Assembly: GCA_026705445.1 (NCBI GenBank) | Contig: JAPPAR010000011.1 | Location: 10,525-74,524, forward strand | Source: Candidatus Dadabacteria bacterium | GTDB lineage: Bacteria > Desulfobacterota_D > UBA1144 > Nemesobacterales > Nemesobacteraceae | Direction of reading: 5' to 3' | DNA: 64,000 bases | In this document: piece by piece, positions 1-12,331 of the stretch | How positions within the stretch are numbered: position 1 is the first letter of the stretch | Layout: each line of letters begins with the position of its first letter | Program-made: the position numbers and the translations under genes | The notes under the pieces: generated by a model | Told to the model about the DNA's origin: nothing | Database searches by the model: none | What the model saw: only the letters and a program-made list of their open reading frames with translations

Positions 1-174
1 AGCCAGCTTGGCACGCTCTTCCCTCGCTTCGAGATCAAGGTACAGCGCCCCCGACTCCCCGGCAATATCAAGCGCCAAGGTCGTTTTGCCGACTTGACGC
101 GGGCCGATCAGCGCCACGGCGGCTTGTCGGCCGAGAGCTTTTCTTAGGGAGTGGGAAGCATGACGTTCTATCAT
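1..174 (-). CDS. AAA+ ATPase (DUF4143/AAA_14-type), N-terminal part; gene runs off the window start
   Basis: Reverse-strand translation from the ATG at 172-174 gives MIERHASHSLRKALGRQAAVALIGPRQVGKTTLALD... with a Walker A P-loop (GPRQVGKTT). Same family as the ORF at 2934..4172. Confidence 0.6.
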   Translation of the reverse strand, partial: MIERHASHSLRKALGRQAAVALIGPRQVGKTTLALDIAGESGALYLDLEAREERAKLA

Positions 175-175
175 G

Positions 176-216
176 CTTGCAAATTATACATAGCTATTCT
201 TAATTTACAAGAATAA
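176..216. repeat. 41-bp hairpin element (TTGCAAAT...ATTTACAA arms); a second copy lies at 4266..4306
   Basis: cttgcaaattatAcata-N10-atttAcaagaataa here and cttgcaaattatGcata-N10-atttGcaagaataa at 4266..4306. The arms are conserved and the 10-nt loop differs. Confidence 0.5.
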
Positions 217-353
217 TTTCCGCATAACAGATAAGATACCGTTGAGAGACTGATGTGCAAAGCAAGTCTTTTCATGCCCAGAAAACTACAGATTGAAAAA
301 GTGCGGCTGCTTGTAACCACGGAAATAAAGAACTTCTGTGAACATGACTCTAT

Positions 354-752
354 TCATAGATTGGGATTAGCAACAAAGCGAGCACCCCTTGCTATTTCCA
401 GAGCCAAAAGCTTCCTTGCATCCTTGCCAGGTGGCCAGCCTCTAATATTGGCATGATTGGGATTATCGGTTGTCGGATCGGCTACAACATTTAACGACTG
501 TGACGTCACGTGAGAAACCTCCACATCAGCCCTGCCATGAAGCTTTCTATTTTGCTGCCCGGAAACAATTTCATTTCCGATATCCCAAATTTCATTTTCG
601 GAAAGATTTAAATGGCGGGTAGTTGACAATTCCAGAGGGTCTTCCGGCGGAATGAAGGCATCTTGCTTGACCGTTTGGTCTGCTCTACGATACCACCTTG
701 AGGAAGTGATATATCTCGCCAGAAGCTCATCAGGCAAAACGAAATCCGTCAT
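354..752 (-). CDS. hypothetical protein (132 aa), last gene of an AT-rich three-gene operon
   Basis: ORF overlaps the upstream ORF by 4 nt (ATGA). Low-GC block 350..2300 contrasts with the high-GC flanks. No family recognised with confidence. Confidence 0.4.
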   Translation of the reverse strand: MTDFVLPDELLARYITSSRWYRRADQTVKQDAFIPPEDPLELSTTRHLNLSENEIWDIGNEIVSGQQNRKLHGRADVEVSHVTSQSLNVVADPTTDNPNHANIRGWPPGKDARKLLALEIARGARFVANPNL

Positions 753-1243
753 TCAATCTCCCCGGCAACCTCTCCAATTAAATCCAATAAATCATCGGAA
801 ACAAAAAATGAAACAGGATCCATTCCATGCCTCCGCTTTGCACCAATTATAGCCGCATAATAAACTCCTCCTCCAGGATTAATGCTGATTGAAACGACTC
901 TGGAAGGAGACCTGTACCATTCCAAAGAAATTGCTCCGTCCGGTTCAGCACCTATTTCCGGAGATTCACTGCCCCAAGGAAAAGATTCCAGAAAGATTTT
1001 AGCGTTCCAGAAAACCTCTTTTGTTATGGCTCTCGCCTCTCCTCCGTCCCATCCGTCCACTCCACACTCGTTAAAGGTCTTTTCCAGTTCCCGAAAAACG
1101 CCTCTAGCCCCAAAACCCAAGATATTAGACCTTTGCAAATGAGCAGATAATTCCCTCATTTGCTGGTCTATAAAGTCACCAGCAGAAAAATCCTGACCTG
1201 AGCAACCTGAAATAAGAGGGGAAGATGTTGCAGTTGCCAACAT
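749..1243 (-). CDS. hypothetical protein (164 aa), middle gene of the AT-rich operon
   Basis: ORF abuts the upstream gene (stop at 1245) and overlaps the downstream gene by 4 nt. Confidence 0.4.
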   Translation of the reverse strand: MLATATSSPLISGCSGQDFSAGDFIDQQMRELSAHLQRSNILGFGARGVFRELEKTFNECGVDGWDGGEARAITKEVFWNAKIFLESFPWGSESPEIGAEPDGAISLEWYRSPSRVVSISINPGGGVYYAAIIGAKRRHGMDPVSFFVSDDLLDLIGEVAGEIE

Positions 1244-1244
1244 T

Positions 1245-2000
1245 TTATTTGCATTCCTCCAAGGCTTTCTTTGTTAAATTACTGAAGAAAACTTTATTTT
1301 TTACCCAACGCATTTCATCCATATATTTAGAAACCTGTATTTCACCACAGTTAAGAGATTTTTGCATAAACACATCTATGTCCAACAGCAATCCGGCTTC
1401 TTGCTGAGTCCTTTGAACAGTCTTTATAACATTAACCGAATAGGGAGTCCCCGGAACCTGCAGCACGTCTCGATGCAAGTAGCCTGATAAAAGCCAGTTC
1501 AAACCCTCGATAGGTAGTGGCGGCCTTTTATAATAATCAGCTAATTCAATTCTCTGTCCCTGTTTGATCGCTAGACGGTTTATAAAGCGCAGACCAATTC
1601 TCCCAATTTCAGTTGGTTCTAGCAGTTCACAGTAAATTTTCCAGAGGCGCAACGCTTCTCGGCTAAATTTCTCCCAGTTTTCGTAAGGCTTTAGCCGACT
1701 AAAGACAAATGAATCTTTATTAAACTGTACGACATAAAAACTATCTCCTGACTGGCACTTCAAACCAACGTGGACAAAATCTTTAACTACGTTGGTTCCG
1801 GTCTCGGGTGAAAGCTGAACTTCAGTTTCCTGCACCGTGTCATGCTTCGGGTAATCAGGCAATCGTTCTTCTAACCGGCTTTGTAGACTCGACTCGTCCC
1901 ATTCGGCAGAAGAAACAACTCGAAGATCAAGAACGGCCTCAACAATCGGCGCGCGCGGCAAACGAGGAAATTCTTCTGTTATATCAATAGGGGATTGCAT
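1245..2000 (-). CDS. hypothetical protein (251 aa), first gene of the AT-rich operon
   Basis: Long ORF in a low-GC block. Possibly a conserved-hypothetical family, not verifiable here. Confidence 0.45.
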   Translation of the reverse strand: MQSPIDITEEFPRLPRAPIVEAVLDLRVVSSAEWDESSLQSRLEERLPDYPKHDTVQETEVQLSPETGTNVVKDFVHVGLKCQSGDSFYVVQFNKDSFVFSRLKPYENWEKFSREALRLWKIYCELLEPTEIGRIGLRFINRLAIKQGQRIELADYYKRPPLPIEGLNWLLSGYLHRDVLQVPGTPYSVNVIKTVQRTQQEAGLLLDIDVFMQKSLNCGEIQVSKYMDEMRWVKNKVFFSNLTKKALEECK

Positions 2001-2397
2001 AATCTTTGTTGCTCGTATCCCTTATCACTGTTTTTAAGTTTTTCCTGCCTCCCCATTCTCCACAATTCTCCGATAAGGTTTTTTCTAAATTGATTCCACC
2101 GTCTAAAACCAAGTTGGAGCAAAAAACTAAAGAATACCAAGCGACTCTGCCCGGCTCTAAGCAGGTTCAATAGTAAGCGCAAGATTATTGCCGGTCATAA
2201 TCTTCCACTTCCCTAACCCTAGTGGGAAGAATTTTTAAGAACCCCGCTAGGGTAGCATCAACTTAACAAAACTCCGTCTTACCCGTTTCCTAGGAATTCT
2301 TAGGAAAATTAAACCTTTATTTACTTTAATATAATATTACCGGAGTTCAATATTGACAAGTCTTCTGTCGCTAGCAAATTAAAATGACCGATGCTTT

Positions 2398-2622
2398 TTA
2401 CCAGAGCTTGAAACAAGCGGAAAAAGTACCGATCAATGTACCTAATTGCTTATAATGCCCGACCAGAAGTTTAAGCGAGGAGCAAACAGTAACTTCAGCA
2501 AATTGAATAATACCAGGAAAATCTCTTCCAGGAAAGATGCGCGATCCGGCAAGCAAGGAAACCGGCTTGGGAAGCCGCACCGCCTGGCTCTTGTTGTTCT
2601 TAAACACTTTTACCCTTTCCAT
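2398..2622 (-). pseudogene. vapB-like antitoxin remnant (AbrB/MazE fold). N-terminus duplicated from vapB at 4884..5114, C-terminus divergent, no cognate vapC
   Basis: Internal Met of ORF 2398..2844 gives MERVKVFKNNKSQAVRLPKPVSL, identical over the first 23 aa to the VapB at 4884..5114. DNA is ~90% identical over ~100 nt. The downstream sequence is an unrelated AT-rich block. Confidence 0.5.
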
Positions 2623-2861
2623 CTCCGCTTCCAGACAGGAAGTCCTAACGCATACAGGTGGTAGCAGGTCGCCGAGATATGTCGAGGGCGGAGAGCGCCT
2701 CCAGCGCTCGACTAAAGGGGTGCGTGAAGACTCGACAGCGCGAAATCGGAAAGCGCCTCCCGTGAACGGAAAACATCCCGAATCAAAAAGACGATCGAAA
2801 GCAGCCGGGCGCAGCGGCGAAAAAACGACGAGGCCGGATGACATTACTTGAGAACATTGTC

Positions 2862-2904
2862 TTCTATAAAAACGCGGATATAATTTCTATAAAAACGCGG
2901 ATAT
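2862..2904. repeat. 20-bp direct repeat x2 (ttctataaaaacgcggatat) with a 3-bp spacer, just upstream of the ATPase gene
   Basis: Perfect copies at 2862-2881 and 2885-2904. Confidence 0.6.
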
Positions 2905-2933
2905 GGAAATAACAATACAGCGAGTTTCGGATC

Positions 2934-4172
2934 ATGTCACATTCTTATTTCCGCTGGCAGCGGGACACCTTGAAAAAAGCCCTCGAAACGCGCCGCGTGC
3001 TGTTGCTCTGCGGAGCGCGCCAATGCGGCAAAACCACCCTTGCCAAGGAACTGGTTTCACGGCATATCGCCTACCGCACTCTAGATGATCCGGCCGTACG
3101 GCAGATTGCCGAAACCGACCCGCGAGGCTTCGTGAAGCATTCGGGAAGCACCCTCATCATTGACGAAGTCCAGCGTGCTCCCGACCTGCTTTCCGCAATC
3201 AAGATAAGGGTGGATGAAGATACGAGACCAGGACAATACCTGCTGACGGGTTCAGCCGACATACAGTCTTCCCCCGGAGTACGGGAATCCCTCGCCGGAC
3301 GCATAAGAAAGGTACGGCTGCGTCCGCTCACCCATGGAGAGATTTTAGGAGCGTCTCCGGATTTCCTTGACCGGGCCTTCAGGCAGGATTTCGGGCATCC
3401 CGACCACGCTTACGACCGTGACGCTATGCTGGACATCTCTTTTGGAGGTGGTTTTCCAGAAGCCATTATGCTTGGAGACACAGAGCGAAGATTATGGCAT
3501 CGGGACTACGCGGACGCGCTTGTGGAACGCGACCTCAGGGATCTCGGGCGTATCCAGCGACGCGACGCCATGAGCGAACTGATACACACCCTGGCGGCAT
3601 GGTCGGGCAAGTTCATGGACATTTCATCCATAGGCGCTGGACTTTCCATCGCGCGCTCCACGGTCGAGACATACATAAACGCCCTAGAAGCCTTGTACAT
3701 TGTCGAACGCGTAAGGGCGTGGAAACGCACCGATTACGCGCGGGCGGGGCAACGCCCCAGGCTTTTTATGACTGACTCGGGACTCATGTCTTCGATTCTT
3801 GACTGGGACAGGCAGCAGGTCCGAATGGATGCGGACCGCTCGGGCAAGCTGATCGAAACCTTCATGTTCAACGAAATAGCCGCCCAAGTGGACGCCAATG
3901 CCGGAAGATACAGTCTCTTCCATTACCGTGACCGCGAAAAGCGCGAGATCGACTTCTTGATCGAAAGGGAGGACTGGGCGCTGCTCGGGATTGAGATCAA
4001 GGCGGGCTCGGCCATCGGAACGAACGATTTCAGAAACCTCAGCTGGTTTAAGAAAAACATCGCGCGCGACAGAAAATTTACCGGGGTCGTACTCTATTCG
4101 GGAGAACTCGCGGGTTCCATGGGTGACGGGCTGTGGGCTGTTCCTTTCGGAACAGTCTGGAACCGGCAGTAA
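2934..4172 (+). CDS. AAA+ ATPase, DUF4143 (AAA_14) family
   Basis: 412-aa ORF with Walker A GARQCGKTTLAKE and a Walker B-like LIIDEVQ. The C-terminal part is typical of the DUF4143 ATPase family. Confidence 0.8.
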   Translation: MSHSYFRWQRDTLKKALETRRVLLLCGARQCGKTTLAKELVSRHIAYRTLDDPAVRQIAETDPRGFVKHSGSTLIIDEVQRAPDLLSAIKIRVDEDTRPGQYLLTGSADIQSSPGVRESLAGRIRKVRLRPLTHGEILGASPDFLDRAFRQDFGHPDHAYDRDAMLDISFGGGFPEAIMLGDTERRLWHRDYADALVERDLRDLGRIQRRDAMSELIHTLAAWSGKFMDISSIGAGLSIARSTVETYINALEALYIVERVRAWKRTDYARAGQRPRLFMTDSGLMSSILDWDRQQVRMDADRSGKLIETFMFNEIAAQVDANAGRYSLFHYRDREKREIDFLIEREDWALLGIEIKAGSAIGTNDFRNLSWFKKNIARDRKFTGVVLYSGELAGSMGDGLWAVPFGTVWNRQ

Positions 4173-4265
4173 GCCGGCTGGCTCACCTTGAAAGAGCGAA
4201 ACGCGTGGCGGCCTGTCGCGCGCAACTTCTCCTGCTGCTTGATAAGAGAGATGAAGTTCCGTTAC

Positions 4266-4306
4266 CTTGCAAATTATGCATACGACTGTCTGATTTGCAA
4301 GAATAA
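4266..4306. repeat. second copy of the 41-bp hairpin element (perfect 8-bp stem TTGCAAAT/ATTTGCAA)
   Basis: See 176..216. Lies 94 nt after the ATPase stop. Confidence 0.5.
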
Positions 4307-4482
4307 ACGGCTCGAGGCTCACATACGTAACCAGAAAGAAGAGAGTTTCCTGATCTACCGAGGATAGATTTTCGCACGGCATTAACCACTTGCAGACTTG
4401 TGTCGGCAATCCAGAGATTCGTCGGTTCCTGAAATTTCGGCCTGCTGACCTGATCTCTCGCGCTCCACGAAGAGAAAGAAGC

Positions 4483-4884
4483 CTATTTGCTCCAATCTTC
4501 TATGCGTAATCCGGCCACACGCTTGAATTCCCGGGTGTTATTGGTCACCAGAATGTGCCCGAGCGACCTGGCGTGCCCGGCAATCATCAGGTCATAATGT
4601 CCGATCGGTCTGCCCGAGGCGGCTAATTCCGCCCTGATTTCACCGGAATGAACCGCCGCAGCGTAATCATAGGACAGCACGTGCAGTCTGGCGACAAAAC
4701 CCTCTATATCGTTGAGATTGCGTCTGGGGTTCGCGGACTTTTCCGCTCCATAAACAAGCTCCATCAGGGTTATGGTTGATATGCACACCTGACCGTAATG
4801 AGCAACAAACGCCCTTTTTATCTTCTCGGGCTTATTCTTTATGGTGTAGATAACTATATTGGTGTCCAGCATATACCTGAGCAT
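4483..4884 (-). CDS. vapC: type II toxin VapC (PIN-domain ribonuclease)
   Basis: MLRYMLDTNIVIY... PIN-domain acidic residues. Start overlaps the vapB stop (ATGA). Confidence 0.9.
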   Translation of the reverse strand: MLRYMLDTNIVIYTIKNKPEKIKRAFVAHYGQVCISTITLMELVYGAEKSANPRRNLNDIEGFVARLHVLSYDYAAAVHSGEIRAELAASGRPIGHYDLMIAGHARSLGHILVTNNTREFKRVAGLRIEDWSK

Positions 4885-5114
4885 CAGAAGGGTTCCCTCT
4901 CCTGACTCCCGGTCTGACCGCGCTCATTCATGAAGTCATCCGTAACACCCTCCCCCTCAAACCAGCTGTCCCATGCTTCTCCAGCCGGAGTGATTAAGCG
5001 GGAACGCCCCAAGCGGATAATATCCACTTCCTTTACTGTATCCGGCAAGGAAACCGGTTTGGGAAGCCTCACCGCTTGGCTTTTATTGTTCTTAAAGACT
5101 TTTACCCTTTCCAT
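4884..5114 (-). CDS. vapB: type II antitoxin VapB (AbrB/MazE/SpoVT family)
   Basis: MERVKVFKNNKSQAVRLPKPV is a typical VagC/VapB N-terminus. Lies directly upstream of the overlapping vapC. Confidence 0.85.
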   Translation of the reverse strand: MERVKVFKNNKSQAVRLPKPVSLPDTVKEVDIIRLGRSRLITPAGEAWDSWFEGEGVTDDFMNERGQTGSQEREPF

Positions 5115-5142
5115 CTCTACCTCCAGACAGGAATATACTTAA

Positions 5143-5192
5143 CGTATATACATTGTAGCTGGCTGTTGGGATATGTAAAGAGTATATACGTA
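5143..5192. promoter_or_regulatory. perfect 10-bp inverted repeat (ACGTATATAC ... GTATATACGT) in the vapBC promoter region; candidate VapB operator
   Basis: Inverted repeat at 5143-5152 / 5183-5192, 29-78 nt upstream of the vapB start. Confidence 0.4.
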
Positions 5193-5275
5193 CTTTTTCT
5201 AAAAGCCTCCCCGAGAAAATTCAGAAATTGTGAAAAGTTGAAAAGACCGTTATCTCGAAGCGGGGCTAACTCCTC

Positions 5276-6736
5276 TCACGAACCGTGATATATCGAGAGA
5301 AAAGCGGTGTAGGTGAAACCGAACTGCATAAGCAGCAGAAAGGGAACCCAGATGAAAAATCCCATGTAGAGAACGTATGCCACCTGGAACGTGAAGAAAA
5401 CCGAGAGGGTGACCTCGAAAAAGATGGTAACCCCTTTTGAGGAAACGTAAGCCGAGGTTCTCCACCGGTCCTTCCTGCCCACGACGGCGTACTTGGGCGT
5501 TCTCGCAAAACCCGACGTCCTGCCCAGAACCGCCTCAAGCACGGCCTTGGCGTTGTTAACCGCTATGCCCGCCCCGACGCTCAGCGCAACGGGTATATAC
5601 TTGTAGAACTCCCGCGCCCGGGCGCCGTGGGCCTCGCGGACCGCCAGTATGTAGAACCTTATTATGGCTAAGGTGCCGAGCGCCACCCCCGTGACGCTCG
5701 CTATGAAAAGGTCGTTAAGCCATATCCTCTCCCACAGGAAATTCATGGGTATTATGAGAATTATAGTGGCGAGCAGAAACAGGTAGCTGAAATTGCCGAG
5801 GAGGTGAAATATGCTCTCGGCCTTTACCTTAAACGGGATCCGGGAGTCGCGAAGCACCGACGGCAAAAGCTTCCCTGCCGTCTGGATCCCTCCCTTGACC
5901 CACCTGTGCTGCTGTATCTTAAAGGCGTTCATGTCAACGGGAAGCTCGGCGTCCGATATGACGTCGGGCAGGTAGACTGCCTTCCACCCGTTTATCTGCG
6001 CCCTGTAGCTTAGATCAAGATCCTCGGTCAGGGTGTCGTGCTGCCACCCTCCGCTCTGCTCTATGCACTTCTTGCGGATCACCCCGGCGGTGCCGTTGAA
6101 GTTAAGAAAAAGTCCGTTTCCATGCCGGGCAGCCTGCTCCACCACGAAATGGCCGTCAAGAAGCACCGACTGGGCCTTGGTCAGAAGCGAGTAGTCGCGG
6201 TTAAGATGCCCCCATCTCGTCTGCACTATCCCGACCTCAGGGTCTTCGAAGCACGAAACGGTCCTTCGGAGAAAATCCCTGGGGGGAACAAAATCCGCGT
6301 CGAAAACCGCAAGAAGCTCCCCGCTTGCCTGCGCGCAGCCCGCGGCAAGCGCCCCCGCCTTGTACCCCTCGCGGTTCCCCCTCCGGATGTGCTTTATGTC
6401 GAAACCGGCGGCCCGGAGCTCATCGGTGCAGCGCGCCGCTATGCGGCTTGTGTCATCGGTTGAGTCGTCAAGCACCTGCACCTCGAGCAGGTCACTCGGG
6501 TAGTCGATCGCGCAGACTGCGCGGATGAGCCTCTCGGTCACGTACATCTCGTTATAGACGGGGAGCTGCACCGTGACGCGCGGAAGGGATCCCTGCCCCC
6601 GCGGGGCCGCGGCGCGGCGCGCCTTTGTCCTCGAGTAAAGATGCACCAGGTAGTAGCGGTGAAGACCGAATATGCAGAGAAAAGCGGAGGAGATAATGTA
6701 AAGCAGGGTGCAGAAGTACTTTATAAACTCAAACAA
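5276..6736 (-). CDS. family 2 glycosyltransferase, processive type (cellulose-synthase-like, QxxRW motif)
   Basis: DxD-type motifs (LDDSTDDT, DADF) and QQHRW, with multiple C-terminal transmembrane segments. Confidence 0.8.
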   Translation of the reverse strand: MFEFIKYFCTLLYIISSAFLCIFGLHRYYLVHLYSRTKARRAAAPRGQGSLPRVTVQLPVYNEMYVTERLIRAVCAIDYPSDLLEVQVLDDSTDDTSRIAARCTDELRAAGFDIKHIRRGNREGYKAGALAAGCAQASGELLAVFDADFVPPRDFLRRTVSCFEDPEVGIVQTRWGHLNRDYSLLTKAQSVLLDGHFVVEQAARHGNGLFLNFNGTAGVIRKKCIEQSGGWQHDTLTEDLDLSYRAQINGWKAVYLPDVISDAELPVDMNAFKIQQHRWVKGGIQTAGKLLPSVLRDSRIPFKVKAESIFHLLGNFSYLFLLATIILIIPMNFLWERIWLNDLFIASVTGVALGTLAIIRFYILAVREAHGARAREFYKYIPVALSVGAGIAVNNAKAVLEAVLGRTSGFARTPKYAVVGRKDRWRTSAYVSSKGVTIFFEVTLSVFFTFQVAYVLYMGFFIWVPFLLLMQFGFTYTAFLSIYHGS

Positions 6737-6773
6737 CTCTCAAAACCTCTTATCTTTAAAGACCAGGTCGCCC

Positions 6774-7940
6774 CTACGGTTTGAACTTCGCTATCCTCTC
6801 GGCAGCCTGCTCTATCCTCTGCGTGTCGAACGTCACCGACACCCTGGCGTATCCCTCGCCGCAGTCCCCGAAACCGTTTCCGGGAGTGACGACCACGCCG
6901 GCTTCGGTGAGCATTCTCTCCGAGAACTCTGAAGATGTCATCCCCTCGGGAACCTCGAACCACACGTAGAACGTGGCCTCGGGGACGGTGTACTCTATGC
7001 CCGCTTCCCGAAGGCCGCGGCAGAATATCTCGAGGCGCTCCCTGTAAACCTCTTTTCTCTCCTCAAGCCCGACGGAGCTGTTACGAAGCGCCGTTATGCC
7101 CGCCACCTGGACCGCCTGGAAAACTCCCGAGTCTATGTTCGTCTTTATCTTCCCGAGACCCGCTATGGCCCTCTCGTTTCCCGCGGCGAACGCCAGGCGC
7201 CACCCGGTCATGCTGAAGGTCTTTGAAAGCGAGTGGAACTCGATTCCCACATCCATCGCCCCCGGTATCTCGAGGAAGCTCAGGGGATTTTTTCCGTAAA
7301 ACGCTATCTCCGTGTAGGCGGCGTCGTGGCAGATGAGTATCTCGTTTTCCCGGGCGAAATCGACCACTTCCCCGAAGAACCCCTCGTTGGCAAGAACCGT
7401 CGTCGGATTGTTCGGATAGTTAAGAAACATCAAGACGGCCCGCTTGGCCACATCCGCGGGAATGGCGTCAAGGTCCGGGAGAAAATCGTTTTCCTTAAGA
7501 AGCGGCATCGGGTAGGGAACCCCTCCGGCGAACGTGGTAGAGACCGGGTACACGGGGTATCCGGGATCCGGCACGAGCGCCACATCCCCCGGGTCAACAA
7601 ACGCTAAAGGCGCGTGGGCTACACCTTCCTTGGAACCTATGAGGGTCACTACCTGCTTTGCGGGATCGAGGCTTACCCCGAAGCGCTCTTCGTACCACTC
7701 GGCAGCCGCCTCCCGAAAAGACAGCATGCCCACGTAGGACGGGTAGCGGTGGTGCTCCGGATCTCCGGAGGCCTCGCGAAGCGACTCCACTATGTGCTCC
7801 GGCGTCGGTATGTCCGGGTCGCCCACCCCGAGGTCGATCACGTCTGCCCCCTTCTCGATCAGCTCGTTTTTTTTCCTGTCGATCTCGGCGAAAAGGTATG
7901 GAGGAAGCTGCTCGATTCTCTCCGCCCACTTGATTTTCAT
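6774..7940 (-). CDS. dapL: class I/II aminotransferase, most similar to LL-diaminopimelate aminotransferase (DapL type)
   Basis: MKIKWAERIEQLPPYLFAEIDRKK..., a PLP-lysine context (SLSKTFSMTGWR), and length 388 aa. Confidence 0.7.
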   Translation of the reverse strand: MKIKWAERIEQLPPYLFAEIDRKKNELIEKGADVIDLGVGDPDIPTPEHIVESLREASGDPEHHRYPSYVGMLSFREAAAEWYEERFGVSLDPAKQVVTLIGSKEGVAHAPLAFVDPGDVALVPDPGYPVYPVSTTFAGGVPYPMPLLKENDFLPDLDAIPADVAKRAVLMFLNYPNNPTTVLANEGFFGEVVDFARENEILICHDAAYTEIAFYGKNPLSFLEIPGAMDVGIEFHSLSKTFSMTGWRLAFAAGNERAIAGLGKIKTNIDSGVFQAVQVAGITALRNSSVGLEERKEVYRERLEIFCRGLREAGIEYTVPEATFYVWFEVPEGMTSSEFSERMLTEAGVVVTPGNGFGDCGEGYARVSVTFDTQRIEQAAERIAKFKP

Positions 7941-8196
7941 TTGAAGTCCTCCCGAGGATAGATAGGTCCTGACAAGGCAATAAGGCTAACTTAACGGTGC
8001 CCGATGGGCAAGTGTGATTTTGTGAGGAAAATCTCCTGCGGGAAGCGTTAACCGCCCCTTAACGGGCACTTTACGCCGCTTTGACGAAGATCGGGGATAA
8101 GTAGCGCTCGGGGGCATGTTTAGGGAATTATGTATGTCAACTTAAATACATAATTCCCCATGTTTAACAACGCCCGCAAAAAAGATTAGAATTACA

Positions 8197-9291
8197 TTGC
8201 GCGCGAGGAGAAAAGGTTTGAAGATACTCTACGCAATACAGGGAACCGGAAACGGCCACATAAGCCGCTCAAGAGACGTGATAGCCGAGCTTCGGAAGTC
8301 GGCCGAGGTCGACATTATGGTAAGCGAGCACCAGCACGAAATAGATCTCGGCTTCGAGGTCAAGTACAACCTGCGGGGACTCGGGTTTGTTTTCGGGAAA
8401 AACGGCGGGATCGACTACTACGCCTCGATAAAGAAGGCCCGCTTCGACAAGCTGCTCGGGGACGTAAACGACCTTCCCGTCGGGGATTACGACATGGTGG
8501 TAAGCGACTTCGAGCCCATATCCTCCTGGGCGTGCCGCCTCAAGAAAAGGCCCTGCGTTTCGCTTTCCCACCAGACGTCGTTCGCGTCCCCCAAGACCCC
8601 GAGGCCCGAGAAGCCGAACAAGATAATGGAATTCATAATAAAGTGGTACGCCCCCGTGTGCATACCGCTCGGGCTTCATTTCCGCGAGTACGACAACTTC
8701 ATAAAGACCCCCATAATAAGAAAGGAGCTTCGCCGCTACGAAGTGCGCCGAAACGGCCACTACACGGTCTATCTCCCGAGCTTTGACGAGCACACCCTGA
8801 TCAGGCATCTGAGCAAAATCGACGTGTGCTGGGAGCTTTTCTCAAAACACTACAAGGGAGAGCCCTACACAGAAGGAAACGTCACCGTGTACCCGGTAAG
8901 CTACGAGAAGTTCATAGAAAGCTTCACCGAAAGCGAGGGCATACTCACCAATGCCGGATTCGAGACGCCTTCCGAGGCCCTTTTCCTAGGCAAGAAGCTG
9001 CTCGCGGTGCCGATGAAGGGGCAGTATGAGCAGGAGTGCAACGCGGCGGCGCTTGAGCAGATGGGATTCGAGGTGCTCCACAAGGTGGGCAGCGATTTCG
9101 AAAGCGTCCTTGAGAGATGGGTATCCCTTCCCAGAGCGCAGCCCGAACCCTACAGGGACGTCGTTCCCGACATATCGGAAACCATACTCGCCCTTGCCGA
9201 GCGCTACGGGGGCGAAGAGGAGTTCAGACACCCGACCGGCTCCCCTATCGAAGACGCCGAGCGAAAGGGGCTCCTAGACCTTTTTCTCTGA
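8197..9291 (+). CDS. GT-B glycosyltransferase (MJ1255/TIGR00661-like)
   Basis: N-terminal ILYAIQGTGNGHISRS motif typical of MGT/UDP-glycosyltransferase-like proteins. 364 aa. Confidence 0.55.
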   Translation: MRARRKGLKILYAIQGTGNGHISRSRDVIAELRKSAEVDIMVSEHQHEIDLGFEVKYNLRGLGFVFGKNGGIDYYASIKKARFDKLLGDVNDLPVGDYDMVVSDFEPISSWACRLKKRPCVSLSHQTSFASPKTPRPEKPNKIMEFIIKWYAPVCIPLGLHFREYDNFIKTPIIRKELRRYEVRRNGHYTVYLPSFDEHTLIRHLSKIDVCWELFSKHYKGEPYTEGNVTVYPVSYEKFIESFTESEGILTNAGFETPSEALFLGKKLLAVPMKGQYEQECNAAALEQMGFEVLHKVGSDFESVLERWVSLPRAQPEPYRDVVPDISETILALAERYGGEEEFRHPTGSPIEDAERKGLLDLFL

Positions 9292-9314
9292 GGATAAAAC
9301 CGCGGCGGGGAAAA

Positions 9315-9992
9315 TCAGGGAAGAAAGAACCAGAAGACCGCGATGCCGAGAACCAGCCCCGCCAGCGTCTGGGCCAAGCTGTGGCACCCGAGTCTCACCC
9401 TCGACCACGCGACCAGCAGGGCAAGAGGCGGGATAACGAAAACCAGGGCCTCGTGCGGATGGGCGAACACCGCCGCCCCGAGCGCGCCGATTGCGGCACA
9501 GTGACCGCTTATCTTCCAGTAAAGCGAAACCAGTATCCAGAGGCCCGTAAGCGCAAGGCATAAGTAGCCGAGCGTGACCAAGGCGCCCGGGCCGCCGACG
9601 AAGCCGTAGAGAAGGAGCGACAATACCGAGTAGACGAAAATAACGCTGAGGGGCCTTATCCGCTCCTCCCTCACGCTTATATGGAAATCCGTCACCTTGC
9701 CCTGTCCCATGAGATAGAATATGTAGGCCGTCGGGGCAAGCACGAAAAGCAGCAGGAAAAGAAAAGTCCAGAGAAACTTGGCGGAGTGATCAAGCGAGTA
9801 AGAGCAGAGAATCACCGCGTAGAAAACCACAAGCGCGGGGGAAAAAACGGTGGAGACGAGGTTCGCCGCGCCTACGACCCTACCACCCTCGGCGGGACGC
9901 GGAAACGTGACCTTTTGAGCTATGTTGTCGTTATTAATCATCTTTCCCTGAGCCCTGTATAAAATAAAAACCGCATGGAGCGCAAAAAACAA
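9315..9992 (-). CDS. PAP2-family phosphatase (membrane)
   Basis: PAP2 motifs KISGH and SRVRLGCHS, with multiple transmembrane helices. The true start may be the internal MINNDN. Confidence 0.7.
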   Translation of the reverse strand: MFFALHAVFILYRAQGKMINNDNIAQKVTFPRPAEGGRVVGAANLVSTVFSPALVVFYAVILCSYSLDHSAKFLWTFLFLLLFVLAPTAYIFYLMGQGKVTDFHISVREERIRPLSVIFVYSVLSLLLYGFVGGPGALVTLGYLCLALTGLWILVSLYWKISGHCAAIGALGAAVFAHPHEALVFVIPPLALLVAWSRVRLGCHSLAQTLAGLVLGIAVFWFFLP

Positions 9993-10112
9993 GAGATAAA
10001 CCGAAGGTTTTTCGTTTTTTAATCACCCTTTTAAAAACCGTTAACACGGCCTTAGAGTTGCAGGGCAAAGAGGTTTCTAAAACCTGCGAATAATCTGTAT
10101 AATACCCGACAA

Positions 10113-10934
10113 ATGGCAACAAGATGGAAAAAGAGTCTTCCCGGCGGCCACACGGGGGCAGCATTTGTTCTCTGCGCGCTGGGGACGCTAGTATCGGGAT
10201 ACCTGCTTGTGGCTGACTTCGTGCTCGGGGGCGCGGAGCTTTGCCTTACGGGCAAAGGCTGCGACATGGTAAGGGAGAGCCGGTACTCGAGCATCGGGGG
10301 CATGCCGGTCTCGCTGCTCGGAGTCCTGGGATACGCGGCTATGGTGACCGTTTCCGTCTCGCGCCTTGGGCGGCGGACAAAGTGGAATCTTCTTTTCTGG
10401 CTATCGGCGGCGGCGGTCGGTTTTTCGGCTTACCTCACCTACCTTGAACTTTTCATAATAGAGGCGCTTTGCTCGTGGTGCGTGGCCTCGGCCGCGATCG
10501 CAGTGGCAGTGTTTCTGCTTGCGGCCTCTCAAACGACCGGCAGCGCCATAAAGTCCTTCGGCGGGGCGGCGACGGTGTTCGTCTTGGTGTTTGCCACGTC
10601 TTACTCCATTCATTCCCCCGCCCCGCGGGAGAATCCCCCGTCCGCGGCTACCTTTTACCAGGTGAGCCTCGCGAAATACCTCTCGGAGCGCGGAGCAATC
10701 ATGTACGGCTCATACAACTGCGGTCACTGTCAGAAGCAGAAGGATCTTTTCGGGGGGGCTTTCGACCACATAACCTACGTCGAGTGCAGCCGAAGCGGTC
10801 CAGACTCCAATCCCACCCTCTGCGCGGGCAAGAACATAAAAAGCTACCCCACCTGGGAAATCGGCGAAGAGTTCCACGAGGGGGTAAGAACTCTCGAGCA
10901 GCTCGGGAGGATCTCGGGTTATTCGGGCAAGTGA
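10113..10934 (+). CDS. VKOR (vitamin K epoxide reductase) family protein fused to a periplasmic thioredoxin-like domain
   Basis: Loop cysteine pair (CLTGKGC), active-site CSWC in a transmembrane helix, and a C-terminal Trx-like CGHC. Confidence 0.7.
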   Translation: MATRWKKSLPGGHTGAAFVLCALGTLVSGYLLVADFVLGGAELCLTGKGCDMVRESRYSSIGGMPVSLLGVLGYAAMVTVSVSRLGRRTKWNLLFWLSAAAVGFSAYLTYLELFIIEALCSWCVASAAIAVAVFLLAASQTTGSAIKSFGGAATVFVLVFATSYSIHSPAPRENPPSAATFYQVSLAKYLSERGAIMYGSYNCGHCQKQKDLFGGAFDHITYVECSRSGPDSNPTLCAGKNIKSYPTWEIGEEFHEGVRTLEQLGRISGYSGK

Positions 10935-11059
10935 AAATTCCCCTCTACAAGGTGCTGGGATCACTTGCCATTGCTTTGACAAGGGGCTTTTATAAATTAT
11001 CTTTATCTTAACGTTCCTATTACAACTGAGCCGCTATCGGGGCGGCATTGGGGTGAAGG

Positions 11060-11902
11060 GTGGAAAAAAGAAACGACGGATTATCGTTCATAATATGCTG
11101 TAACAAGTTCGGGTGGACCCGGTCCTGGGGCATAAGCAGGGAACGGTTGCAGTTCGTGCTGGGCGCCTTGGGGATTTTCGTGCTGGGCACGCTTCTCTCA
11201 TTCTTTCTCTCATACAAGTTCTACGGGGAAGCACAAGATATCCGGGCGCAGAAGCAAGCCGAGATAGACGAACTGCTAAGCGCCGTCGAGGCGATGTCGC
11301 ACGACATAATCGTGGACAAGAAACTTGAGGACAAGTTCATAAAAAGGGTCCTTCGTCTCGAGAAAAAGCTTGCCTCCATGGAGAGAACGCTCTCTGAGAA
11401 AAAGCGGAGAAAAGCTCTCCCCGCGGGAGGACGCGGCTTCCAGGCAAGCGATATCGGTCACGATTACTTTGACGCGCTAGAGAAGGACATAGACCGCCTC
11501 GCCAAGGCCATGGACTCCATTCCTTTCGGAAAACCCGCCCGGGGAGGAATCTCTTCGCACTACGGCTACAGGAAATCTCCCTTCTCGGATGCCAGGGAGT
11601 TTCACGGCGGAGTAGATTTCAGGGGGAAAATAGGAGACGAGGTAACGGCCACGGCGGACGGCGTCGTTCACAAGGCCGAGTACGTTAAGGGCTACGGAAA
11701 GCACGTTGTCATCAAGCACAAAAAAGGCTACAAGACTCTCTATGGGCATCTCTCCAAGATAAGTGTCACCAAGGGCCAGAAGGTCGTAGCGGGAGAGAAG
11801 ATAGGGGAACTAGGATCGACGGGCCGTTCAACCGGGCCGCATCTTCACTACGAGATAATAAGGTACGGAAGAAGAATCAACCCCAAAAAATACGTAAGAT
11901 AG
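11060..11902 (+). CDS. M23-family (LytM) peptidoglycan metallo-endopeptidase
   Basis: HGGVDF...GSTGRSTGPHLHYEI is the M23 zinc motif. N-terminal transmembrane and coiled-coil region. Confidence 0.85.
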   Translation: MEKRNDGLSFIICCNKFGWTRSWGISRERLQFVLGALGIFVLGTLLSFFLSYKFYGEAQDIRAQKQAEIDELLSAVEAMSHDIIVDKKLEDKFIKRVLRLEKKLASMERTLSEKKRRKALPAGGRGFQASDIGHDYFDALEKDIDRLAKAMDSIPFGKPARGGISSHYGYRKSPFSDAREFHGGVDFRGKIGDEVTATADGVVHKAEYVKGYGKHVVIKHKKGYKTLYGHLSKISVTKGQKVVAGEKIGELGSTGRSTGPHLHYEIIRYGRRINPKKYVR

Positions 11903-11914
11903 GGGAAAGCCTGT

Positions 11915-12331
11915 ATGTATAACAGCAAACGGAAGAGCAAAAACAATAACTCGGGTGCCGTGGAAACAGTTCTGGGCAAAGGCGTGGTGTTCGAGGGAAT
12001 CATCTCGTGCGAGGGATCGATGAAGGTCGAAGGTGAACTCAAGGGAGACATAAAAGTCGCCAACTCAATCGTGGTGGGCCCTAACGGTTCGGTGACCGGG
12101 GACATAAACGCCAGAGAGGTCATCATATTCGGGAAAGTAACCGGAAAGATAGATGCCGGGGCGCTTGAGATCAAAAGCACGGGAGAAATAACCGGAGAAG
12201 TCCTGATCGAGACCCTGATAACCGAGGCCGGGGGAATCATGAGGGCGAAGTGCGAAATGAAAAGCCCCGCACCGAAAGGCGTAAAGGATAAAGGCCCGGC
12301 TCCCGGCTCCTCCCAAGCGGCGAAACCCTAA
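11915..12331 (+). CDS. bactofilin (DUF583) cytoskeletal protein
   Basis: Repetitive beta-helical VxGxVxG segments (VEGELKGDIKVANSIVVGPNGSVTGDI...). 138 aa, immediately after the M23 gene. Confidence 0.85.
   Translation: MYNSKRKSKNNNSGAVETVLGKGVVFEGIISCEGSMKVEGELKGDIKVANSIVVGPNGSVTGDINAREVIIFGKVTGKIDAGALEIKSTGEITGEVLIETLITEAGGIMRAKCEMKSPAPKGVKDKGPAPGSSQAAKP

Follow-up and report, generated by a model that had tools for sequence, protein, structure and literature searches.

What is a compact, low-GC operon of three small genes doing beside a vapB remnant in a Candidatus Dadabacteria genome, and how did it come to lie there? Analysis of this locus, which occupies one end of a 64-kb stretch of DNA (referred to here as the window), indicates that the operon most probably encodes a toxin-antitoxin or phage-defence system that has not been characterised before. 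Somewhat less firmly, we favour the more specific reading that it is a tripartite module of the toxin-antitoxin or abortive-infection type, carried at 258-2364 as a self-contained mobile cassette.

An ORF check placed all three genes on the minus strand, in the order gene 1 (1245-2000, 251 aa), gene 2 (749-1243, 164 aa) and gene 3 (354-752, 132 aa). Genes 1 and 2 are separated by a 1-nt gap (TAA-A-ATG) and genes 2 and 3 overlap by 4 nt (ATGA), while the GC content is 42.9% over 217-2552 and 44.2% over the three genes, compared to 52.6% for the whole window and 56% for the neighbouring genes. The overlap, the short gap and the low GC content point to the coupling and foreign origin of the operon, bearing out the original observation of a tightly coupled, low-GC operon. 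Small, adjacent, co-directional and translationally coupled genes with low GC content and mobile contexts also match the generic architecture of type II toxin-antitoxin loci. A promoter scan revealed a candidate minus-strand promoter and leader upstream of gene 1 (2001-2364; −35 TTGTCA at 2359, −10 TATTAT ending at 2331), giving a 5′ leader of ~330 nt that travels with the cassette, since blastn and nhmmer homology to the copies in Dadabacteria and Thermodesulfobacteriota reaches 2340-2364. A terminator-like hairpin followed by a T-run (303-320, minus strand) lies 34 nt past the gene 3 stop codon, within the DNA common to other genomes, which starts at 258. The cassette would therefore comprise its own promoter, leader, three translationally coupled genes and terminator. 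The plus-strand gene at 2934-4172, encoding a 412-aa AAA_14/DUF4143 ATPase that matches the PADLOC candidate PDC-S01 (E 4e-135), is a neighbour of the three-gene module and does not belong to it.

The three proteins had been described as lacking any confident family assignment, which proved wrong for gene 1. Residues 13-249 of its 251-aa product match NCBIfam TIGR04255 with 117.8 bits (cut-off 30, E 6.7e-34). The protein is built of two beta-alpha-beta(n)-alpha repeats with a topology resembling TBP and guanidino-kinase, the fold matches being weak (TM below 0.4) and SecB not being among them. Gene 2 had no match in Pfam, NCBIfam or the PDB; its product has a conserved core (C..GWDG...PE.GAEPDG.I.LEWY), and its gene invariably lies between genes 1 and 3 in three-gene loci. 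No antitoxin DNA-binding domain was recognisable in the three-gene form of this middle protein.

Gene 3 has a confidently predicted ADP-ribosyltransferase (ART) superfamily fold (pLDDT 93), and its structural matches include DarT, RES, ParT and MbcT, bearing out, for the last gene of the operon, the earlier suggestion of an ART or RES family. The conserved residues R13 (strand 1), S43 (strand 2) and H100 (in NPxH) were mapped by secondary-structure order rather than by superposition; in the same mapping the conserved Glu before strand 5 is absent and NPxH100 is conserved there instead, giving a set of R, S and H as opposed to the canonical R-S-E or H-Y-E. Pfam gave neither a DUF4433 nor a RES match. 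Among its families a signal came only from DUF7886, itself uncharacterised, which was detected in 11 of 35 gene 3 family members (best E 7e-6); the copy in the window scored 19.3 bits, below the gathering threshold of 27.

Comparison across genomes revealed that the three genes are inherited together. Among the 71 loci from species-representative genomes that offer room upstream, 67 have the TIGR04255, middle and ART-like genes contiguous, in that order and on one strand, and all 53 metagenome loci that were seeded from gene 1 and had room showed the same order; going by record titles, the module occurs in at least ten bacterial phyla. Rare two-gene variants without TIGR04255 retain the middle and ART-like genes, suggesting that these two form the core pair, and their middle protein gains an N-terminal extension. 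In one such variant (L060) the extension resembles a ribbon-helix-helix by eye only, with a weak match to MazE6 (E 0.14) as its sole hit in the PDB and no match in Pfam. Premature stops were confined to gene 3: the 99%-identical L003/L004 copy and L036 carry a nonsense or frameshift lesion in gene 3 with genes 1 and 2 open, L067 carries a gene 3 lesion with gene 2 open and gene 1 off the contig, and L078 has a stop in gene 3 and has also lost gene 1. This pattern of decay is indirect evidence that gene 3 may be toxic and its toxicity neutralised.

The existence of variants without TIGR04255, the ATGA overlap of genes 2 and 3 and the TBP-like topology of TIGR04255 would suit a reading in which genes 2 and 3 alone make up a conventional type II toxin-antitoxin pair, with TIGR04255 a co-transcribed passenger or a transcription factor that exerts no control over the toxin. 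We regard this as unlikely, given that all three genes keep together, closely spaced and in an unchanging order, in different phyla, and that TIGR04255 elsewhere precedes unrelated toxin genes. The last gene of an operon headed by TIGR04255 encodes a HEPN protein in Thermus and, in Vibrio, what is annotated as a zeta toxin, and in Acinetobacter and Rhodococcus TIGR04255 has HTH or regulator genes downstream of it; these instances of partner swapping come from a few plasmid loci and in part from depositors' annotation. Because of this co-occurrence across phyla and these unrelated toxin partners, a functional partner fits TIGR04255 better than a passenger.

The module resides in mobile and defence-island contexts. 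In one, type I restriction-modification genes, PDDEXK and DUF4365 adjoin it; in another, SNF2/PLD and an MmeI-type enzyme lie on one side and a methyltransferase, MvaI/BcnI and DndB on the other. Other copies accompany TIR and OLD-like ATPase genes, sit inside F-type conjugation gene clusters, close a P2-like prophage record from Ralstonia or occur on IMG/VR contigs, and certain contexts contained no defence genes at all. Homologues of gene 3 were not found in plasmid and phage collections, and the only phage record with the module has a divergent version, is marked UNVERIFIED and carries the genes at its very end. Together with the co-inheritance across phyla, these contexts support the proposal of a self-contained, horizontally moving module resembling toxin or defence systems. 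ARTs that target host proteins are a known cargo of mobile elements, and the module was found repeatedly within or next to F-type transfer gene clusters, raising the alternative that it is conjugative-element cargo whose ART-like enzyme modifies a host or defence protein without killing, aiding transfer or countering host defence. We consider this quite unlikely, as numerous copies occupy restriction-modification islands of the chromosome that have no transfer genes and TIGR04255 is elsewhere paired with the classical HEPN and zeta toxins.

Gene 3 also matched KptA/Tpt1 chains (179-206 residues), a resemblance that would suit a nucleic-acid repair or modification pathway in which a kinase- or ligase-like TIGR04255 enzyme works with a Tpt1/KptA-like NAD+-dependent transferase. 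Tpt1/KptA enzymes are two-lobed proteins of ~180 aa, and their N-terminal RNA lobe carries most of the Arg-His-Arg-Arg tetrad. Since gene 3 encodes a single domain of 132 aa, of which only 92 residues align, it would lack the N-terminal RNA-binding lobe bearing most of the tetrad, and identity with Tpt1/KptA RNA 2′-phosphotransferase was rejected. The repair pathway is very unlikely on other grounds as well, including the patchy, horizontal distribution of the low-GC module in mobile elements and defence islands, the decay of gene 3 through nonsense mutation and the weakness of the gene 1 fold matches. It is highly improbable that gene 3 belongs with polymorphic toxins that are exported or act by contact, such as Tse2, Tne2 or the Rhs C-terminal ART toxins, and has gene 2 as its immunity gene, despite a lipobox-like ISGC in gene 2, as the Cys of this motif is not conserved, a protein of 132 aa barely exceeds the fold itself and leaves no room for a trafficking domain (none was found in Pfam), secretion-system genes do not consistently adjoin the module, and the putative immunity gene lies upstream of the toxin gene, whereas in polymorphic toxin loci it usually lies downstream.

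How the cassette came to lie beside vapB can be read from its boundaries. The sequence at 2553-2641 matches 5045-5133 with 90% identity over 89 nt, which blastn extends to 81% over 132 nt, and corresponds to part of the intact minus-strand vapBC pair at 4483-5114 (vapC 4483-4884, NF010285, E 7e-62; vapB 4884-5114, NF040493, E 2e-31). The remnant forms the start of a chimeric 74-aa ORF (2398-2622, minus strand, ATG at 2622), whose first 23 codons (2554-2622) encode MERVKVFKNNKSQAVRLPKPVSL, identical to the intact VapB, and the DNA upstream of 2622, up to ~2682, is vapB-like too. Only these 23 codons are kept and no vapC follows them, confirming the predicted loss of the vapB 3′ part and vapC. 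Homology to the intact vapBC unit breaks off abruptly at 2552/2553 and at 216/217. To judge from these breakpoints, the cassette replaced the vapB 3′ part and vapC between two conserved flanks, in agreement with the proposed insertion into a second vapBC copy, and the site of replacement appears to be one of two vapBC-ATPase units in the Candidatus Dadabacteria genome, beside an integrated conjugative element.

A pair of 41-bp elements had been noted at 176-216 and 4266-4306, with conserved arms (TTGCAAAT / ATTT(A/G)CAA), and proposed as a candidate recombination site or regulatory hairpin bounding a ~4.1-kb segment. The pair exists: the two copies share 31 of 41 bases (76%), are direct repeats 4090 nt apart and are the only copies in the 64 kb, with none in 100 shuffles, which argues against a genome-wide REP-like repeat. 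A promoter scan of the minus strand suggested a different identity, with TTGTAA and TATAAT spaced by 16 nt and an inverted repeat in copy 1, and TTGCAA and CATAAT spaced by 16 nt in copy 2. The promoter-like sequence of copy 1 ends 8 nt upstream of the start codon (ATG at 174) of an AAA_14/DUF4143 ATPase gene, which occupies 1-174 of the minus strand before running off the window (its length of 390 aa was taken from locus L001). In the 70 nt past copy 2 (~4195-4265), a colinear CGACA(A/G)GCCGCC lies at the same offset as in this gene, a likeness that 68 of 2000 shuffles scored equally well, and this stretch may be a degenerate remnant of the 5′ end of another such ATPase gene. We therefore assign the element as a putative σ70-type promoter of the ATPase gene (copy 1) and a relic copy of it (copy 2). 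There is only a slim chance that the elements are recombination sites or footprints of Campbell-type integration delimiting a 4.1-kb insert: direct repeats flanking foreign-looking DNA, each with an internal inverted repeat that makes a weak hairpin (copy 1, z −0.8 to −1.9; copy 2, z −2.3 to −3.5), would suit such an origin, but the copies are only 76% identical, each is a −35/−10 promoter at the start of an ATPase gene or its relic, no recombinase gene adjoins the element within the window, and cassette homology to other genomes covers 258-2364 only, in genomes that lack the element.

Comparison with known systems revealed partial likenesses. CmdTAC, an anti-phage toxin-antitoxin-chaperone system of three components whose toxin is an mRNA ADP-ribosyltransferase (PMC11618068), likewise has three co-transcribed genes, one of them ART-fold, with a small partner and a third accessory protein, in mobile or defence loci, and provides a precedent for an accessory subunit gating an ART toxin. 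However, the sequences show no similarity, the CmdTAC genes run T-A-C as opposed to accessory-middle-ART, CmdT has an H-Y-[E/D/Q] triad (PMC11618068) where R, S and H are conserved in gene 3, and CmdC is SecB-like, in contrast to the TBP and guanidino-kinase topologies of TIGR04255. Like the SecB-like chaperones of TAC systems, TIGR04255 is found next to toxins of unrelated kinds (ART-like, HEPN and zeta, at few loci), although its fold and gene position differ from theirs. DarTG, Xre-RES, ParST and MbcTA share a small ART-superfamily toxin gene beside a neutralising partner, the role proposed here for gene 2, but have other conserved residues and no counterpart of the TIGR04255 gene; moreover, the module has neither the macrodomain of DarG nor the Xre/DUF2384 antitoxin of Xre-RES and ParST. 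PDC-M32, an untested PADLOC candidate that is merely listed in PMC12429752, was weakly matched by the middle protein (PDC-M32A, about 260-340 of 375) and by gene 3 (PDC-M32B, in both the window and the Ralstonia copies), and five divergent middle proteins weakly but repeatedly matched the C-terminal part of PDC-M32A (E 1e-4 to 0.04). With E values of 1e-3 and 1.6e-3, an A match of 60 of 375 positions and three genes in place of two with a 375-aa A protein that TIGR04255 does not match, the module falls outside PDC-M32.

We propose that gene 3 is a minimal ART-fold enzyme acting as the toxic effector, which probably modifies or depletes a cellular target using NAD+, that gene 2 would be its cognate neutraliser, an antitoxin or adaptor, and that TIGR04255 would be a conserved accessory subunit, serving as sensor, regulator or stabiliser and paired with other toxin types elsewhere. 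What the data establish is the order of the genes, the ART fold, the strict joint inheritance of all three, the contexts in mobile DNA and defence islands and the exchange of downstream partners; toxicity, neutralisation, NAD+ use and any anti-phage role are what we infer. More tentatively, and as a possibility we hold to be doubtful, TIGR04255 may mark a class of tripartite conflict systems that has so far gone unrecognised, in which a conserved pseudo-dimeric lead subunit senses the trigger, or stabilises or gates the adaptor, and so controls interchangeable toxins. If so, these toxins would include a new R-S-H clade of ART-fold proteins, HEPN RNases and zeta-type kinases, and the operon from Dadabacteria would belong to the largest branch.

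Examination of the low-GC DNA near the left end of the window revealed three genes on the minus strand, encoding proteins of 251 amino acids (gene 1, 1245-2000), 164 amino acids (gene 2, 749-1243) and 132 amino acids (gene 3, 354-752). The genes are tightly coupled: a single base separates the TAA of gene 1 from the ATG of gene 2, as read from the sequence, and an ATGA overlap joins genes 2 and 3. The G+C content is 42.9% in 217-2552, compared to 52.6% for the whole window and ~56% for the flanking genes. The three ORFs are as described in the original prediction. A σ70-like promoter (TTGTCA-17-TATTAT, 2359-2331, minus strand) lies ~330 nt 5′ of gene 1, and gene 3 is followed by a terminator-like hairpin and T-run (320-303, minus strand). 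DNA-level homology with copies from Dadabacteria and Thermodesulfobacteriota spans 258-2364, taking in the promoter, leader, genes 1-3 and terminator, and the ~330-nt leader (2001-2364) is kept at 74-86% in these copies. In an RNAalifold analysis of six close leader sequences, covariation contributed only −4.2 of −42.9 kcal/mol, which leaves a structured RNA in the 5′ leader unproven. An Rfam search of window positions 1-6000 with an E cut-off of 1 found nothing. The leader also contains a small ORF (2157-2198, minus strand) with the conserved start M(T/A)G(N/S)NL.L and several synonymous changes, which ends at a TAG after 13 codons in the window versus 23-29 codons in relatives.

Comparative analysis indicated that the three genes travel as a unit. 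A search seeded with gene 3 recovered 80 loci in species-representative genomes of at least ten phyla, and the order found here was contiguous and on one strand in 67 of the 71 loci with room upstream. Each of the 53 metagenome loci that came from a gene 1-seeded search and had enough room showed the identical order. The neighborhoods of the module included type I restriction-modification genes with PDDEXK and DUF4365 genes; a position between SNF2/PLD and MmeI-type enzyme genes on one side and methyltransferase, MvaI/BcnI and DndB genes on the other; TIR and OLD-like ATPase genes; F-type transfer clusters; a terminase fragment; and, at some loci, nothing notable. A Ralstonia P2-like prophage record ends with a divergent version of the three-gene module, and IMG/VR contigs carry further divergent versions. 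The plasmid and phage collections searched yielded no gene 3 homologues, and a copy of the module in a Klebsiella MAG had no DNA match in E. coli genomes. On a Thermodesulfobacteriota chromosome (L013, 6882-9585), a decayed copy lies in an F-type transfer cluster, directly next to a hipBA pair; an IS (rve) gene occupies the gene 1 position, and a truncated 129-aa gene 2 is all that remains.

Gene 3 encodes an ADP-ribosyltransferase (ART)-like protein, for which sequence searches of Pfam, NCBIfam, PADLOC and PDB returned nothing significant. A profile search with an E cut-off of 1e-3 identified 2,348 cluster representatives, most of them 125-145 aa long. R13 in strand 1 is invariant throughout this set, and near-invariant positions are S43 in strand 2, H100 ahead of strand 5 and W106-P107. 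The usual ART catalytic Glu is not conserved; gene 3 thus appears to encode an ART-fold enzyme that lacks this residue, and its chemistry and target may therefore be unusual. Pfam DUF7886 gave a sub-threshold match in 11 of 35 gene 3 members; in the library searched, no paper turned up under DUF7886 or PF25377.

Gene 2 had no family or structural match in Pfam, NCBIfam or PDB and nothing significant in PADLOC. Five divergent members weakly matched the C-terminal part of the PADLOC candidate component PDC-M32A. A lipoprotein reading of gene 2, based on the motif ISGC, fails for lack of conservation of its Cys.

Gene 1 belongs to the TIGR04255 family (117.8 bits against a cut-off of 30); the library searched likewise gave no paper under TIGR04255 or IPR026349. 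Its model (pLDDT 83) contains two beta-alpha-beta(n)-alpha repeats, and Foldseek returned TBP (E 3e-4) and arginine kinase with TM-scores < 0.4, a likeness that is, as judged from the model, topological only. The polar residues E21, Y106, W109, R138, D207 and D209 are invariant across very divergent members, which suggests a putative ligand or partner site.

Three kinds of variation bear on the roles of these proteins. First, more distantly related TIGR04255 genes lead operons that have other partners downstream. On Thermus pTB1 (L103) the two genes that follow are a hypothetical gene and a HEPN protein gene (Pfam E 4e-6), and on Vibrio plasmid CP063527 (L195) a hypothetical gene and an annotated zeta toxin gene with a Walker A motif. 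In Acinetobacter and Rhodococcus, HTH or regulator genes come next, and in Methylocystis TIGR04255 adjoins an annotated abortive-infection gene. Second, two Planctomycetota loci (L060, 5448-6375; L074, 5513-6384) keep the middle and ART-like genes and lack TIGR04255. In both, the middle protein is extended at its N terminus by ~45 aa that look ribbon-helix-helix-like by eye; the sole PDB match was MazE6 (E 0.14), and Pfam and NCBIfam did not confirm this domain in the L060 protein. Third, gene 3 is interrupted by a premature stop or frameshift at L003/L004, L036, L067 and L078. In L003/L004 and L036 both other genes are still open, as is gene 2 in L067. In L003/L004 (1553-1951, GCA_009837205.1) the cassette copy is 99% identical to that of the window and the lesion converts W56 to a stop. 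Together, the swapped partners, two-gene variants and gene 3 lesions fit a scheme in which gene 3 would be the toxic effector, gene 2 its neutralizer or adaptor, and TIGR04255 a conserved accessory common to different toxins. Plasmid-borne TIGR04255 loci as a set (L195, L103, L194, L192, L193 and L102) have other downstream genes (zeta toxin, HEPN, HTH/regulator and unknowns), and the L003/L004 copy, from another Dadabacteria MAG, lies in a different neighborhood, where fragments of an OLD-like ATPase type and a TIR_2 protein are encoded.

Analysis of the flanking DNA supported the proposal that the cassette entered a second vapBC copy. The vapB remnant upstream of gene 1 is real, sharing 23 identical codons with the intact vapB, with a 90% match over 89 nt and 81% over 132 nt when the upstream region is included. 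Homology between the two vapBC-ATPase units ends sharply at 2552/2553 and 216/217, and the same two kinds of flank enclose the 3′ part of vapB, vapC and a spacer (4307-5044) in one unit and the 2.3-kb low-GC cassette in the other. The cassette has therefore replaced the toxin-antitoxin genes of the second unit.

The 41-bp element was also part of the original prediction, as a candidate recombination site or regulatory hairpin bracketing the segment. Its two copies (176-216 and 4266-4306, minus strand) are real, with 31 of 41 bases identical, and none arose in shuffled sequence. A REP-like repeat is rejected, as a search for further copies found only these two in 64 kb. The recombination-site reading was also rejected, since the element reads as a −35/−10 promoter at the start of an ATPase gene. 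On the minus strand, copy 1 reads TTGTAA-16 nt-TATAAT, and its end lies 8 nt ahead of the start codon (ATG at 174) of an AAA_14/DUF4143 ATPase gene. This gene is cut off by the window edge and is complete (390 aa) in the longer contig L001. Copy 2 reads TTGCAA-16-CATAAT. The apparent arms arise because TTGCAA is self-reverse-complementary and present both at the −35 position and right after the −10, and the copy 1 hairpin is weak. Among all fetched loci, the element is confined to copies of this Dadabacteria locus; in every copy that includes the adjoining DNA, the 390-aa ATPase gene follows immediately downstream of it. The ~70 nt after copy 2 show a colinear likeness to the ATPase 5′ end (CGACA(A/G)GCCGCC at the same offset) that 68 of 2000 shuffles matched, making this stretch a marginal candidate for a relic of that end. 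We conclude that the element is a promoter that may include an operator, accompanied by a relic copy.

The other ATPase gene, encoding a 412-aa DUF4143 protein (2934-4172, plus strand), matches the PADLOC candidate PDC-S01 (E 4e-135) and is a separate neighbor of the three-gene module. Just upstream, a perfect 20-bp direct repeat, TTCTATAAAAACGCGGATAT (two copies with a 3-nt spacer, 2862-2904, plus strand), overlaps a predicted promoter, TTGTCT-16-TATAAT (2857-2884), and may be an operator or iteron. The region containing it (2687-2915) is 74% identical over 230 nt to L001 13007-13236, just past the left window end and downstream of the 390-aa ATPase gene, and is a third duplicated segment of the mosaic. 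Left of the window, just past the 390-aa ATPase gene, L001 12000-20756 encodes TrbC_Ftype, TraU, a T4SS coupling protein and a phage-type integrase, which places the locus at the cargo edge of an integrated conjugative element. A tRNA/att site search found no tRNA genes in window positions 1-12000 or in contigs L001-L003.

Among known systems, the closest functional analogue of the module is the three-gene CmdTAC, in which an ART toxin is combined with an antitoxin and a SecB-like chaperone (PMC11618068). However, the module lacks a SecB-like protein and the H-Y-[E/D/Q] motif and has another gene order. It likewise falls outside DarTG, Xre-RES, Tpt1 and DUF7886. Nor is it a member of PDC-M32, which appeared in the literature search only as a list entry; gene 2 weakly resembles PDC-M32A, and gene 3 matched PDC-M32B weakly in two of the five divergent members matching PDC-M32A. 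PDC-M32, itself a candidate system, is therefore a distant cousin of the module. On balance we lean slightly toward filing the module as a new form of ART-toxin toxin-antitoxin or abortive-infection systems, its functions all being ones that we infer. The observation behind the original prediction is confirmed; its interpretation stands as to an ART-type toxin or defense-like cassette replacing part of a vapBC copy, and fails as to the 41-bp element.

Recognizing the 41-bp hairpin as a promoter removes a false lead, and the locus, lying at the edge of a conjugative element, emerges as a mosaic of swapped defense and toxin-antitoxin cassettes. If our reading is right, three uncharacterized families, namely TIGR04255, the middle protein and the DUF7886-related ART-like clade (about 2,300 clusters at 50% identity), would acquire a joint function in one widespread module of environmental bacteria, including Planctomycetota, Nitrospirota, Proteobacteria and sponge symbionts, and TIGR04255 may represent a new kind of accessory subunit common to different toxins.
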